The notes below the pieces were generated by a model. The model did no database searches, was not told where the DNA came from, and was given only the letters and a program-made list of their open reading frames with translations. From a bacterium (GTDB lineage: Bacteria; Margulisbacteria; Marinamargulisbacteria; SXXA01; JAHFDB01), in assembly GCA_023249195.1 (NCBI GenBank), contig JAHFDB010000006.1, positions 1 to 49,481 of the forward strand: a DNA stretch of 49,481 nucleotides. Reading direction: 5' to 3'. Positions within the stretch are counted from its first letter, which is position 1. Each line of letters starts with the position of its first letter. Positions 7,622 to 46,773 of this stretch are shown here, piece after piece. Position numbers and translations under genes: made by a program.

Positions 7622-7650
7622 TTATCGAAAAAAGATTGGCATTTATTTCA
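7622..7650 (-). promoter_or_regulatory. TGAAAT-N17-CGATAA motif copy 1 (putative sigma28-like promoter)
   Basis: Minus strand TGAAAT AAATGCCAATCTTTTTT CGATAA, 31 nt before ATG at 7590; same spacing as copies at 38868 and 46745. Confidence 0.6.
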
Positions 7651-7671
7651 AAGAAAAGTAGTATAAAGGCA

Positions 7672-9876
7672 ATGAAAAAAATGGGTATTCTTTTAGGACT
7701 TGCACTTTCTCTACAAGTGTCCGTAGCACCCCTCCATTTTGTACCTGGAGAAGTCCTCATTAGAACAAAAGAACCTCTGTCAAATTTCCAAACTGCTTCT
7801 ATCCATACCGCCACACTTGATCCCATTCTGAGAAAATACTATATCAAACAAATGATAAATTTGGATACCAATACTGCTGAAAACTTGAAGATTCAAGCAG
7901 AAAGCACTCCCTTTAAGTCAGAATTAATCTATAAATTTACGCTTCAAAGTCCCACAGAAGATGTTCTTGCCGTTGTCAAAGACCTTTCTCGGGCTCCTGA
8001 AATTCTGTGGGCTCAGCCCAACTATGTATATCACACCTGCCTCACGCCTAATGATACCGAGTTTTTTAGGCAGTGGGGAATGCAGACTATTCAGGCCCCT
8101 GAAGCTTGGGATTTAACCACCGGAGATGCCACTGTCAAAATTGCTATTATTGATACAGGTATTGATAGCACGCATTCTGATTTAAGCACTAAAATTATTG
8201 AGGGAAAAGACACGATTGATAATTTAAATAACATAACAGACCAAGCCGGACATGGAACCCATGTGTCAGGCATTGCAGCCGCCATTACAAACAATAGCAA
8301 CGGAGTTTCTGGTGTCGGGTTCAATTGCAGCCTTATGCCCATTAAAGCCGGCAACAGCGACGGAAATTTTTCAAGTCAAAGCATTAAATCTGGCTTAAAT
8401 TATGCCACGAACCACCATGCCAGTGTCATTAATATGAGCTTTATTTCTGAAGATCCCAATGTAGAAGATAATGACATTAAATTAGGTGTCGATACCGCAT
8501 TTTCCGCAGGCATTCCTATGGTTGCTGCAGCTGGAAACTCGAGTACCAATATTCTTATTAACCAGCTTTATCCTGCGTCTTACACAAAAGTTCTCTCGGT
8601 CAGTGCGATCAAGTCAGATGGCACTTTCGATTCTCGGTACAGTAATTTTGGGAAAATAGACCTAGCTGCACCAGGAACAGCTATCCCCTCAACTTATCCC
8701 GGCAATCAATACGCCTTTGAAACGGGCACTTCTATGGCCGCACCCCATGTAACGGGTTTAATCGGGCTTATTAAATCTGTATCTCCTAATATTTCACTTG
8801 CTGCCCTATATAAACTTATTACCCAAAATGCCACAGATGCTGGCCCTGCGGGATTTGATGCCCAATATGGACATGGCATCATTAATGCACGGGCAACACT
8901 TCTTGCACTAGACAAAGCCGCCCCGGTTATTACAGCAAGAGCCCAATGTCCGACACAAAATATTAATACCCCGCTTCTTATTACGGCCAATGTTACCGAT
9001 GATATTAATTGGAATAACAGGCCTTCAGTTACGCTTAACTATCAGTTTTTTCAAAATTCAACGTCTATAGGTAATCTTCATGCTCTCAAGATGACCAAAT
9101 CTCGCTCCCTATATAGGGCCATTGTTCCTACGCCTTCTCCGCTCATTACAAAAGTAACCTATTTTTTTGTGGCTGAAGACCCTGTCTCCCACAGAACCAC
9201 CTTCCCGCTCCTGGGGGGCAATGCCGCACTCTCCTTTGCCATTTCAGACACAACAGGGCCCGTCATCACGACCTCTTATCAGAGCCAAGATTTTTACACA
9301 CCCGGATCAGATCTCCACTTTACGATTACAGACAATATTGGCGTAAGCGCGAACACACTTCGGGTTACTGTCCAATCTACTTTAGGAAGCACTGCGTATG
9401 CCTACCCTACAGACTCTCAACTCCAATTAAGTCAAGGAACTCTGACCCTATCAAATAGCATTTTGCCTCATTCAGGAAATTTTACGGTTCAAATTCGTGT
9501 TCAAGATATCAATCACAATAGCTCAGAAATGTCTCTCAGCCTGCTACAAACCCAAGAATTTACTTTATCGGGCCCTCAGACCAATCAAAGTAAAGTGATC
9601 AATGGTCCAAACCCTTTTAATCCAGATAAAGAATGGACTTACATAGGTTACCAAATCAGCCAAGACGCAGCTGTCTCTATCTCAATTTATTCGCTTAATT
9701 TACAGCTTGTCAAACAATTTTCTCTCCAAGATAGCGCAGGTTATCACGAAGTATCGTGGAACGGAAAAGACGACTCTGGGGACACTGTTCCAAACGGGGT
9801 TTATATGATGATCATTCAGGCAAAGTCAGGTGGTAAAACCATTACAAAACAGAATAAAATAGCGGTACTCAGATAG
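7672..9876 (+). CDS. Secreted S8 subtilisin-family serine protease with C-terminal FlgD-Ig-like domain
   Basis: Catalytic IDTG, HGTHVSG, AAAGN, GTSMAAPHV; signal peptide from ATG 7672 (ORF track starts at 7636); C-terminal NGPNPFNP..WNGKDDSG..VPNGVY. Confidence 0.92.
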   Translation: MKKMGILLGLALSLQVSVAPLHFVPGEVLIRTKEPLSNFQTASIHTATLDPILRKYYIKQMINLDTNTAENLKIQAESTPFKSELIYKFTLQSPTEDVLAVVKDLSRAPEILWAQPNYVYHTCLTPNDTEFFRQWGMQTIQAPEAWDLTTGDATVKIAIIDTGIDSTHSDLSTKIIEGKDTIDNLNNITDQAGHGTHVSGIAAAITNNSNGVSGVGFNCSLMPIKAGNSDGNFSSQSIKSGLNYATNHHASVINMSFISEDPNVEDNDIKLGVDTAFSAGIPMVAAAGNSSTNILINQLYPASYTKVLSVSAIKSDGTFDSRYSNFGKIDLAAPGTAIPSTYPGNQYAFETGTSMAAPHVTGLIGLIKSVSPNISLAALYKLITQNATDAGPAGFDAQYGHGIINARATLLALDKAAPVITARAQCPTQNINTPLLITANVTDDINWNNRPSVTLNYQFFQNSTSIGNLHALKMTKSRSLYRAIVPTPSPLITKVTYFFVAEDPVSHRTTFPLLGGNAALSFAISDTTGPVITTSYQSQDFYTPGSDLHFTITDNIGVSANTLRVTVQSTLGSTAYAYPTDSQLQLSQGTLTLSNSILPHSGNFTVQIRVQDINHNSSEMSLSLLQTQEFTLSGPQTNQSKVINGPNPFNPDKEWTYIGYQISQDAAVSISIYSLNLQLVKQFSLQDSAGYHEVSWNGKDDSGDTVPNGVYMMIIQAKSGGKTITKQNKIAVLR

Positions 9877-9881
9877 TCAGA

Positions 9882-10244
9882 CTACTCTAGAAAGAAAAAA
9901 CCTGCAAAACTGGCAATATCCTGCCCACCCTCTAAGAATAAAGAAGAAAAAATCTCCTCATAGTCATAGTCCCCATGGGGTGTAAAATGATGAGGGTCCA
10001 GTTTAAATTCTTCTAAGATATCCTCATGACAATAGTACACCATTCCATTGTCCACAAAAACCATATAAACAGGATCATTTTTAAGTTTATGTATGGAAGT
10101 AAGGTAGACTTTAATAACACGGTATATAGGAAGTCCGGTAGAGGGATGAGGTAACTCTAATTCAAGAAGTTTAGAAGAGGAACTGTAGCGAATCATATCC
10201 GCCCCTACTTCTTTTAAATGCAACACAACTGAAGTAAGAGACAT
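9882..10244 (-). CDS. Hypothetical protein
   Basis: 120-aa ORF filling the gap directly downstream of slyD on the same strand. Confidence 0.6.
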   Translation of the reverse strand: MSLTSVVLHLKEVGADMIRYSSSSKLLELELPHPSTGLPIYRVIKVYLTSIHKLKNDPVYMVFVDNGMVYYCHEDILEEFKLDPHHFTPHGDYDYEEIFSSLFLEGGQDIASFAGFFFLE

Positions 10245-10250
10245 AGAAAA

Positions 10251-45337: not shown

Positions 45338-45412
45338 CGCCCTGTTTTAGGGATAAAAAACCTCAAAAAAAAACTATTGGAATTTTTACAAACTTTGAGT
45401 CATAATGGGGAT

Positions 45413-45454
45413 AGAACAACTGCCAAGTTACCCCCCTTTCTTGACAGTTGTTCT
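45413..45454. terminator. Hairpin between convergent cyclophilin and phosphatase genes
   Basis: AGAACAACTGCCAAG / CTTGACAGTTGTTCT 15-bp stem with one mismatch (G-U pair on the minus strand). Confidence 0.6.
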
Positions 45455-45462
45455 GTCTATAT

Positions 45463-46674
45463 CTAGCTCGGTGGAACCCACCATACTCTTCCCTGCTCTG
45501 CGCCACGCCTCATAAGTCCGTCTATTGTAGAGTGATCGCATAAGCCAACCAAAATACTATTCAATCTTTGACACACATCTATAAGCTCTCGATCCGAGGC
45601 TAGTCCTGTGTGATAAAATGCGCTTACATTGAGATGACAGTGCCTATCCGCTATGGACGATGCATTATCATCTACAATGATATACAAGTCTTGATTGGGG
45701 TTCAACACTATTTTACAATTAGTTTTCAGGTGGTCACAAAATTTTGGGTGTGAAAAACTCTTTTTAATCTCCCGACTTCTGAGCTCTTCATCATTCCTCG
45801 CCATTTCTGAACTGGACACATTAAAATCAAATGTAAAATTACTCACACGTGAAAATATACTATTGACAGCATGGTCTAGAATAGTTCTATCTGCATTGGT
45901 CCATATCCCCCACTTTATCGCTGGAATAGAGGCTCTAAGCCCCGTGATATAGGCCATCAGTGTTTCGAGGTGTGGCCTCAATACAGCCCGATATCCTCCT
46001 CCTTCACAAGGTACCGCATGCCACAGAGTGTGGTCTAAATCAAGAACCACAACAACGTTTTTACCAGAAAATAACTTATTAAGCTTCTCTATTTGATATT
46101 CAGAAAGTTCAACAGGGTCTAGCTTTGCTTTTTTGGGTTTTCCCCCTATATCGTCAACCTCTAAGGATCTTTTCACCCCGCCCCTAGCAGCAACGCTGAA
46201 TCTAAAGTCCTCCAAAAATTTAACTACACATTCGACCCCCTTTCCCTTGTCGTAGCCAACCATCTTCTCTATTTCCTCAGCCAACTCAACAGCTTTCCAA
46301 TTATTTGCAAAGTCCCCATTAGCAAACACAAAATTCAGTAAAGAGCAGTCATCAACAGTGATATGTAGTTTATTCCTATACCCACAGTCTAAAGCTGCAG
46401 TCGAATATGTCTGAGGTAATAATGTTATCCAATCAGAAGCTTCTTTTTGCAAAGAGGGCTCGATTTCACAAGTAAATATCGCTTCGCAAAAAGTATCAAA
46501 CACACTCGATTCAGGAAAAATATCTAACTTATGTAATTCTTGAAACATCTCAAGACAACTCAAAATAATACCCGCTTTATCTATATCTTCATTTTCTTCT
46601 TTCTCCTGTAAACAGGTTAGCAGTAAGTCGTTTATTCCATTAAATCTTACCGCCACCACTTTATTAAATCGCAT
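45463..46674 (-). CDS. NIF/FCP1-SCP-like HAD phosphatase domain protein with N-terminal helical extension (candidate effector)
   Basis: VVVLDLDHTLWHA (DxDxT), LRPHL..L, GIWT, K motif, IIVDDN, DREL. Confidence 0.75.
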   Translation of the reverse strand: MRFNKVVAVRFNGINDLLLTCLQEKEENEDIDKAGIILSCLEMFQELHKLDIFPESSVFDTFCEAIFTCEIEPSLQKEASDWITLLPQTYSTAALDCGYRNKLHITVDDCSLLNFVFANGDFANNWKAVELAEEIEKMVGYDKGKGVECVVKFLEDFRFSVAARGGVKRSLEVDDIGGKPKKAKLDPVELSEYQIEKLNKLFSGKNVVVVLDLDHTLWHAVPCEGGGYRAVLRPHLETLMAYITGLRASIPAIKWGIWTNADRTILDHAVNSIFSRVSNFTFDFNVSSSEMARNDEELRSREIKKSFSHPKFCDHLKTNCKIVLNPNQDLYIIVDDNASSIADRHCHLNVSAFYHTGLASDRELIDVCQRLNSILVGLCDHSTIDGLMRRGAEQGRVWWVPPS

Positions 46675-46744
46675 AGGGTATTATCAGACTTCCATGATCA
46701 GATATCTCAATATTTATAGATATGTCTGTTAAACACATATACCT

Positions 46745-46773
46745 TTATCGAAATAGGCCCTTAAAAAATTTCA
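46745..46773 (-). promoter_or_regulatory. TGAAAT-N17-CGATAA motif copy 3 (putative sigma28-like promoter)
   Basis: Minus strand TGAAAT TTTTTAAGGGCCTATTT CGATAA, 70 nt before ATG at 46674. Confidence 0.6.

Follow-up and report, generated by a model that had tools for sequence, protein, structure and literature searches.

In Campylobacter jejuni, FspA and the Fed proteins are non-flagellar proteins that depend on sigma-28 and are exported through the flagellar type III secretion system (T3SS), as described in passages of PMC9856085. Flagellar basal bodies without flagellin are reported for Buchnera aphidicola (PMC8109811), and in Chlamydia sigma-28 drives the non-flagellar late genes hctB and tsp (passages of PMC12282069). 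Here we analysed a 49,481-nucleotide stretch of DNA (the window; contig JAHFDB010000006.1 of assembly GCA_023249195.1, from a bacterium of the class Marinamargulisbacteria in the phylum Margulisbacteria), in which a two-box element, TGAAAT-N17-CGATAA, stands upstream of three dispersed genes. A first-pass annotation of the window had proposed an alternative sigma factor whose sigma-28-like promoter marks scattered orphan and eukaryote-like genes, and the core of this reading is supported by our analysis. The best explanation as a whole, and in our judgement a probable one, is a regulon of FliA/sigma-28-family promoters tied to a flagellum-derived export machine.

In Chlamydia the apparatus is of the injectisome type, and flagellar paralogues are few. 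Chlamydia resembles the present case in that the FliA-type sigma factor of a non-motile, host-associated bacterium drives non-flagellar genes, but its regulon is tiny (two genes bound, in the relevant passages of PMC12282069) and not effector-like. The Campylobacter system is closer in its sigma-28 promoters on non-flagellar genes, its co-expressed flagellar-type export machine and an implicated role in host interaction; as portrayed in those parts of PMC9856085, however, its flagellum is complete and motile and the genes of this kind number only a handful, whereas here no flagellin was detected and about 40 genes per genome are concerned, across the phylum. A further difference is that many of the proteins described here have an N-terminal signature in common, and that their export is a prediction. 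Buchnera likewise keeps a basal body and type III export genes without a filament gene, with a hypothesised role in protein export. What it keeps is the remnant of one flagellar system in a single reduced genome, for which no dedicated regulon is known, in contrast to the conserved second paralogue, own sigma factors and large regulon found here. Sigma-28-driven, non-flagellar exported proteins are already known, and the promoter here is a variant of the sigma-28 class; the present case differs in the tens of genes per genome, the conservation throughout the phylum, the N-terminal signature, and a second apparatus that is dedicated and comes with two sigma paralogues. The literature searched here, a scope outside which supplementary gene lists fall, yielded neither a flagellin-less T3SS nor this promoter for the phylum, and two papers on the phylum (PMC6784892 and PMC6349859) leave flagella unmentioned in their main text.

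The two-box element and its relation to sigma-28 promoters

TGAAAT-N17-CGATAA has exactly three exact matches in the window, all on the minus strand (Table 1). Chance would give a mean of 0.01 copies, and three or more occurred in none of 100 dinucleotide-preserving shuffles. The exact search reproduced the three copies of the first-pass annotation together with their coordinates and strand, and the gaps that it gives to the next same-strand ATG (31, 99 and 70 nt for promoters 1, 2 and 3) were recovered as well. Its 'identical 17-nt spacer' holds for length but not for sequence, the spacers being T-rich and different from each other.

The assembly to which the window belongs (G000) comprises 1.69 Mb in 83 contigs and is 92.9% complete. 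The exact boxes occur in it 16 times with a 17-nt spacer (N17 form), nine times with a 16-nt spacer (N16 form) and 0–2 times at each other spacing from 5 to 40 nt, while control patterns with reversed halves or swapped order gave 0–1 and 0–3 matches, respectively. The motif thus exceeds background by a factor of about 25 or more, and its spacing is sharply peaked. At 21 of the 25 exact sites, a co-directional open reading frame (ORF) of at least 156 amino acids begins 4–194 nt downstream; two of the remaining four sites fall within coding sequence, and the other two are not followed by a long ORF. A two-block position weight matrix (PWM) built from the 21 sites with a downstream ORF returned 37 sites of at least 18 bits, against none in the reversed genome; with the threshold at 14 bits the counts were 48 and 7, respectively. 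The merged PWM sites number 44, of which 39 are intergenic, and some carry a TGAATTTTT variant of the −35 box. The extended consensus reads TGAAATTTTT...(T/A-rich)CGATAA(T/C), and the flanks beyond the two boxes are not conserved. With its orientation, its position upstream of genes and its sharp spacing optimum, this bipartite element is taken to be a promoter, very probably that of an alternative sigma factor. On the genome scale, the claims that the motif exceeds background, is intergenic and is correctly oriented were borne out, but the regulon, first drawn up with three genes, has about 40 members and makes use of both spacer lengths.

Start codons lie 6–10 nt past CGATAA in 11 of 37 targets (10 ATG and one GTG), and a twelfth ORF has a GTG start 4 nt past this box. 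Since these codons fall where a sigma-28 transcript would begin, the geometry suggests that about one third of the regulon may be transcribed as leaderless mRNAs.

In the fliC promoter of Pseudomonas aeruginosa, TCTAAAG occupies −36 to −30 and GCCGATAA occupies −15 to −8, and the sigma-28 geometry TAAA-N15-GCCGATAA leaves 17 nt between TAAA and CGATAA (promoter passages of PMC12784957). The N16 form, rewritten as GAAA-N17-CGATAA, has this same geometry, and the N17 form is one base longer. The −10 box keeps the canonical CGA core, which all 25 exact sites share by definition. In the −35 box, the GAAA within TGAAATTTT departs at a single base from the TAAA of the canonical TCTAAAG or TAAAGTTT, and the T-rich tail is kept. 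The extended −10 GC of GCCGATAA is not conserved in G000, where this position is T/A-rich; CCGATAA and GCCGATAA forms are found in relatives. Set beside the class-3 promoters of sigma-28 in Escherichia coli and P. aeruginosa fliC (same passages of PMC12784957), the element is alike in being bipartite, in its AAA-containing −35 box, in the CGATAA core and in the distance of the N16 form, and a cognate sigma gene embedded in flagellar operons is a further likeness to the class-3 systems. It differs in a −35 box of TGAAAT(TTT) instead of (C)TAAAG, in the T/A-rich replacement of the extended −10 GC, in the extra spacer base of most sites (16 N17 against 9 N16) and in its regulon, since none of the targets found is a flagellar, motor or chemotaxis gene and no FlgM was detected.

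The flagellated families of the phylum themselves provide a reference. Upstream of 10 of their flagellin genes stands (C/T)TAAAG-N14-(A/T)(C/T)CGA(T/A/C/G)AA, which equals TAAA-N17-CGAnAA and has the spacing that the N16 form shows when written as GAAA-N17-CGATAA. At 11 loci of these families, flagellin paralogues of a second set are without a sigma-28 promoter and have instead a conserved TTGGTCCGCATGTCGGGG about 100–150 nt upstream. Promoters of extracytoplasmic function (ECF) sigma factors carry GAAC in the −35 box and CGT in the −10 box, for example TGAAAC-N16-CGTA for Bacillus subtilis SigW. The TGAAAT and CGATAA boxes found here contain neither the AAC nor the CGT of that consensus.

Within the class, 29 of 31 genomes have the exact motif, which reaches 83 copies (0–2 for the reversed control); it is also present in 117 of 121 sampled genomes of the phylum, typically with 15–75 copies (0–3 for the reversed control). 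A flagellated relative (G064) has 19 exact copies, nearly all of the N16 form, before non-flagellar genes that often bear the N-terminal signature described below. In three hold-out genomes (G015, G035 and G023), the 52 targets are mostly orphans with few family matches, among them two kinases, HEAT, LRR and ARM repeat proteins, a calpain-type protease and a SWI2/SNF2-type helicase; enolase, phosphoglycerate kinase (PGK), two RpoD-like sigma genes and a few enzymes also occur. The RpoD-like sigma gene (regions 1.2, 2, 3 and 4) behind the motif at two of these 52 loci, one of them on contig C34 of G015, hints at a sigma cascade. Three DNA runs, all from one study, are labelled groundwater metagenome, and this label is the sole clue to the habitat.

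Several other loci of G000 attracted attention in their own right. The top site without an ORF scores 34.7 bits and lies outside the window (C4:6681-6709, minus strand). A near-perfect hairpin of 45 nt follows its CGATAA at a distance of 7 nt, with no ORF of at least 80 amino acids behind the site, and the locus is a candidate sigma-28-type small RNA. Four sites cluster on one 28.6-kb contig (C35:4834-17356), where two divergent promoters lie 43 nt apart (14385-14413 on the minus and 14456-14483 on the plus strand); this region holds two kinases, one of which has the N-terminal signature and no motif. On contig C13, tandem paralogues of 888 and 890 amino acids without a family (390-3053 and 3113-5782) share identical promoters, TGAAAT-N17-CGAGAA, with the ATG 9 nt after the −10 box.

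Downstream genes and a shared N-terminal signature

Thirty-five proteins encoded downstream of motif sites in G000 were scanned for families. Seven matched Pkinase, two Ank, and one each LRR, MORN, NIF phosphatase and ResIII/DEAD helicase; four had only sub-threshold repeat or FHA-like matches, and 16 no family at all. Two are housekeeping proteins, namely the large subunit of ribonucleotide reductase (RNR), which begins 194 nt downstream of its site, and a class-I tRNA synthetase whose site is weaker and reads TGATAA; the earlier statement that the motif is missing before housekeeping genes therefore stands for the window but not for the genome. No late flagellar gene (flagellin, motor, chemotaxis or flgM) is represented among the 35. 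The motif precedes seven of the ten Pkinase matches of the genome, a strong enrichment before eukaryote-like genes. It is carried by only about 40 of roughly 1,600 ORFs, and these are overwhelmingly orphan or eukaryote-like. Several targets contain short basic clusters that by eye resemble nuclear localisation signals.

Many targets also begin alike, with K-x-[IV]-[AS] near the N-terminus, as in MNKKIVAA, MKKIIAAS, MYKLISLS, MNKIVSAP, MQYKIVST and the MRFNKVVAV of the NIF protein in the window. With the test pattern K.[IVLM][AS] within the first 18 residues and background ORFs of at least 100 amino acids, the signature was found in 24 of 37 motif-linked ORFs, compared with 91 of the 1393 other ORFs of G000 (Fisher p ~1e-18). 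In hold-out genomes it was found in 28 of 69 targets (7 of 17 in G020 and G022, and 21 of 52 in G015, G035 and G023); in G035, a variant has KKII followed by T, L or D. Residues 2–30 of the targets are Pro-rich (1.8-fold) and Glu-poor (0.5-fold). This shared peptide is a candidate signal that may direct the export of effectors. Nine further ORFs of G000 have the signature without a strong site, and a near-motif lies at only one of them (C26:11232), and therefore the promoter and peptide tags overlap without being identical.

The three targets in the window are listed in Table 1 with their promoters. Target 3 contains a KPKKAKLD basic cluster besides its signature, and its label as a NIF phosphatase in the first-pass annotation is confirmed by the Pfam match. 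By contrast, the glutaminase fold assigned to target 2 found no support: the protein has no Pfam or NCBIfam family and no usable Atlas match, and its Atlas model is poor (predicted local distance difference test score, pLDDT, 0.35). Neither of these two proteins has a homologue at E<=1e-5 among 30 relatives, members of the same family included. Phylogenetic footprinting of the window targets is consequently impossible, and a conserved promoter thus goes with a changing cargo. For target 1, labelled a small beta-barrel in the first-pass annotation, no family was found, and the sequence opens with a hydrophobic stretch like that of a signal peptide. It had been taken as an effector, but its site probably heads an operon instead, comprising an uncharacterised secreted or membrane protein, a hemerythrin-domain protein and a Fur-family regulator (6166-7590); co-transcription is judged from gene spacing and orientation as listed. 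This promoter may hence control an iron or oxidative-stress regulator. The weak fourth site is doubtful as a member of the motif family, because the reversed-genome control also yields matches at such scores.

Table 1. Promoter-like sites and associated genes in the window
Feature	Position	Strand	Description
Promoter 3	46745..46773	-	TGAAAT 46773-46768, CGATAA 46750-46745, 17-nt T-rich spacer; exact match; PWM 31.5 bits
Promoter 3, predicted transcription start	near 46737	-	Predicted from sigma-28 geometry as given in passages of PMC12784957
Target 3, 403 aa	45463..46674	-	C-terminal NIF/FCP1-like phosphatase domain; Pfam PF03031 31.2 bits, cut-off 21.8
Promoter 2	38868..38896	-	TGAAAT 38896-38891, CGATAA 38873-38868; exact match; PWM 29.6 bits
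Promoter 2, predicted transcription start	near 38860	-	
Target 2, 832-aa orphan	36270..38768	-	Ser/Pro-rich N-terminal part; no family; no N-terminal signature
Promoter 1	7622..7650	-	TGAAAT 7650-7645, CGATAA 7627-7622; exact match; PWM 29.2 bits
Promoter 1, predicted transcription start	near 7614	-	
Target 1, 187 aa	7027..7590	-	Signal-peptide-like hydrophobic N-terminus; no family; first gene of probable operon
Hemerythrin-domain gene	6603-7007	-	Probably co-transcribed with target 1; PF01814 46.7 bits; 19-nt gap
Fur-family regulator gene	6166-6603	-	Probably co-transcribed with target 1; PF01475 93 bits; 0-nt gap
Weak fourth motif-like site	19370..19397	-	GTAAAT-N16-CGATAA, 14.3 bits; overlaps start of 121-aa ORF

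Flagellum-like export genes and candidate sigma factors

Both the secretion system and the FliA-type sigma factor to which the first-pass annotation had pointed have counterparts in G000, which encodes a flagellar-type export apparatus and two FliA-like proteins. The scores of FlhA, FlhB and FliP exceed both the flagellar equivalog cut-offs and those against the injectisome (Sct) models (FlhA 797.4 versus 658.5 bits for hrcV, FlhB 372.6 versus 338 for SctU, and FliP 256.9 versus 203.9 for SctR). FliQ (84 bits) and FliR (158 bits) match flagellar models best, just below the cut-offs, and FliM/N-like and FliO proteins were matched too. Rod, P-ring and L-ring genes are represented by FlgG, FlgA, FlgH, FlgI, FlgB-like and FlgC, and the FliI/YscN ATPase scores 628 bits. 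There are two unusually long FliG-like proteins (674 amino acids at C13:14384-16408 and 498 amino acids at C75:25179-26675). In both of them the FliG homology lies at the C-terminal end, and the copy on C13 adjoins a FliM-like fragment and two TPR proteins. The export-gate operon has a 318-aa ORF without a family inserted between fliP and fliQ (C21 3297-4250).

No flagellin (PF00669) was found in G000, a genome that is 92.9% complete. Flagellin occurs in one of the 31 genomes of the class, a fragmented, 3%-contaminated metagenome-assembled genome (MAG), and in 15 of the 121 genomes of the phylum, as compared with flagellar-type FlhA in 113 of the 121. Flagellin-bearing families have two FlhA genes, one of which (800-846 bits) adjoins a bona fide FliA (212-235 bits against FliA_WhiG), and the other (about 780-790 bits) adjoins a shorter FliA-like gene, here called FliA-2; non-flagellated families keep only the FliA-2-linked FlhA. 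The universal system is therefore a second flagellum-derived machine and not a decaying flagellum. Homologues of FlhA (74-79% identical) and one of FliA-1 (44%) are labelled Margulisiibacteriota, which we take as a lead only, as other close homologues carry labels such as 'bacterium', 'Thermoproteota archaeon', 'Actinobacteria' and 'Rickettsiales'. A search for TLC/NTT transporters gave no match, its control being silent as well.

Besides two FliA-like genes, the sigma-70 family of G000 comprises one SigB/F/G-like gene and two short RpoD-like ones, five in all. FliA-1 (contig C54) has FliA_WhiG (TIGR02479) as its best family, with 120.8 bits, and its top six matches in the PDB are FliA/WhiG-type sigma chains over nearly the full length. 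It is encoded in the operon flgG-flgA-flgH-flgI-orf133-fliA1-flgB-flgC. FliA-2 (contig C21) is the last gene of fliO-fliP-orf318-fliQ-fliR-flhB-flhA-orf89-fliA2 and has a length of about 200 amino acids in relatives (182-214); it matches FliA_WhiG in an N-terminal piece of 28.8 bits and a C-terminal piece of 42.9 bits, and the first PDB match of its profile is FliA, with the region-2 stretch included. In G000 the gene (C21 8757-9355) appears as frames of 143 and 66 amino acids, split by one base in a T-run. An extra T follows position 9154 in one of two Logan contigs of run X1, the probable source run, and the split is probably an assembly ambiguity; we rejected it as an argument in favour of FliA-1.

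FastTree placed FliA-1 together with another, second group-3 sigma factor of flagellated relatives (support 0.97), next to their bona fide FliA, and FliA-2 on a long separate branch. FliA-2 is present in 113 and a FliA-1-like gene (E<=1e-25) in 99 of the 121 genomes; in some motif-rich families the FliA-1-like matches are only weak. A search of genome contigs with FliA-1 returned sigma factors only 28-29% identical, from unrelated MAGs. As to which of the two would read the motif, our slight preference goes to FliA-1, given its conserved region 2 and the near-canonical −10 element. Between flhA and fliA-2 lies an ORF of about 90 amino acids (C21 8491-8757) that is conserved in relatives and has no family. 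As a candidate it may encode a regulator of FliA-2; Q-S-x-Y-R is invariant close to its N-terminus, and LG[LIV] forms the C-terminus. FlgV was considered for this 89-aa ORF and rejected, as FlgV has two transmembrane helices (PMC11607428), unlike the ORF.

Proposed mechanism, alternatives and significance

A putative mechanism can be outlined as follows. TGAAAT would serve as the −35 box (TAAA changed to GAAA) and CGATAA as the −10 box, with transcription starting about 7–8 nt downstream. By analogy with flagellar class-3 control, a FliA-like sigma factor encoded within the apparatus operons would turn on the late export substrates. The sigma factor would in this way tie substrate expression to the apparatus, and flagellin would be replaced by effector-like proteins with an N-terminal export peptide. 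The regulon would consist of about 40 promoters in G000, mainly those of lineage-specific orphans and of proteins with eukaryote-like domains. On comparison of promoters and sigma genes, the sigma factor that reads the motif likely belongs to the FliA family. Export of the products by the flagellar-type T3SS is a tentative step, whose chances we put clearly short of even, and eukaryotic hosts as their targets are a possibility that also falls somewhat below an even chance.

Several observations weigh against the explanation by a FliA-type regulon tied to an export machine. Neither FliA-like protein reaches the FliA_WhiG cut-off of 189.6 bits, region 2 of FliA-2 is too divergent for Pfam, which recognises region 4 only, and the tree shows FliA-1 and the bona fide FliA of flagellated relatives to be non-orthologous. 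The presence and absence of sigma genes across genomes singles out neither paralogue as the reader of the motif: family f8 has a divergent FliA-2 but lacks FliA-1 as well as the motif, copies of the motif are few or missing in families f27 and f28, where both sigma factors occur, and a FliA-1-like gene goes without any motif, relaxed forms included, in G002, G017 and G030. No PWM site precedes any flagellar gene of G000, and Pfam at E<=1 gave nothing resembling an FlgM-like anti-sigma factor for the 133-aa and 89-aa ORFs adjoining the sigma genes. The regulon is not purely effector-like, as it includes RNR and the tRNA synthetase here and enolase, PGK and RpoD-like sigma factors elsewhere. Ser/Thr kinases and repeat proteins occur in free-living bacteria as well, and the motif was found at about 2 of the 27 top-scoring kinase loci of relatives, a sample with short flanks that is biased to housekeeping-type kinases. 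Finally, the signature pattern was set after targets of G000 and of a flagellated relative had been seen, and its hold-out rate of about 40% is lower than the 65% of G000, the background of 6.5% having been measured in G000 only.

Of the alternatives, the one nearest to this explanation differs from it only in the acting paralogue and its name: the motif might be read by a two-domain ECF-like sigma factor, namely FliA-2, rather than by a true sigma-28. The promoter does resemble ECF promoters, and FliA-2 is short, is recognised by Pfam in region 4 only, sits directly behind flhA and is near-universal like the motif (113 versus 117 of 121 genomes), its apparent frameshift in G000 being of little account if it is, as is probable, an assembly ambiguity. 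We nevertheless consider this reading improbable, in view of a −10 core of CGA in place of CGT, a −35 box without AAC, a FliA-2 profile that finds FliA first in the PDB with region 2 included, and family f8, which keeps FliA-2 and has no motif. SigB and SigF promoters have a GGGTAT-like −10 element. This departs from CGATAA and argues against a quite unlikely alternative in which the SigB/SigF/SigG-like sigma factor of contig C42 reads the motif within a stress or developmental regulon unrelated to the apparatus. The gene of this factor is intact (TIGR02980, 228.2 bits, just under the cut-off of 234.35) and group-3 sigma factors have bipartite promoters of similar spacing, but G029, a genome of family f8, appears to keep such a sigma factor (248-aa match) and has no motif, and the flagellin promoters of the phylum link a CGA-type −10 element to FliA.

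A variant housekeeping promoter of an RpoD-like sigma factor, or the operator of a regulator, would make the association with orphans secondary. The abundance of the motif (up to 83 exact copies per genome), its position before enolase, PGK and RNR in some genomes and the two RpoD-like genes of G000 would fit, yet the motif is unlike TTGACA-N17-TATAAT, the fraction of ORFs that carry it in G000 is small and overwhelmingly orphan or eukaryote-like, and the tight gap to the start codon in 11 of 37 targets fits a promoter and not an operator; this reading appears very unlikely. Although the motif was defined after the fact, its threefold occurrence in the window, a number reached in 0 of 100 shuffles, the sharply peaked spacing profile, the lack of conservation outside the boxes and the presence in 117 of 121 genomes reduce chance, a dispersed repeat or the end of a mobile element to a negligible probability.

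Beyond the FliA/sigma-28-family regulon as such, a bolder reading can be formulated, which we regard as speculative and rather unlikely to hold. Throughout the phylum, a second type III machine, derived from the flagellum but devoid of flagellin and served by FliA-like sigma factors of its own, might secrete a fast-evolving and doubly marked repertoire. The double mark might consist of the sigma-28-type promoter (TGAAAT-N16/17-CGATAA) and an N-terminal export peptide resembling K-K-I-I-A/S, and in the class of the window the repertoire might be rich in eukaryote-like kinases, repeat proteins and phosphatases. A flagellum would then have been exapted to an effector-secretion system independently of the injectisome, with an effector set that could be read from the genome.

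Read conservatively, the motif marks a phylum-wide alternative-sigma regulon of about 15–80 genes per genome, mostly orphans, which is useful for annotation. If the wider interpretation is true, the promoter and the N-terminal peptide would be tags by which a candidate secreted or host-interaction repertoire becomes readable from any genome of a large uncultured phylum. This repertoire would be tied to a flagellum-like machine that lost, or never had, its filament, and the passage from flagellar export to effector secretion, together with the re-use of sigma-28 and its checkpoint, would become directly testable questions.

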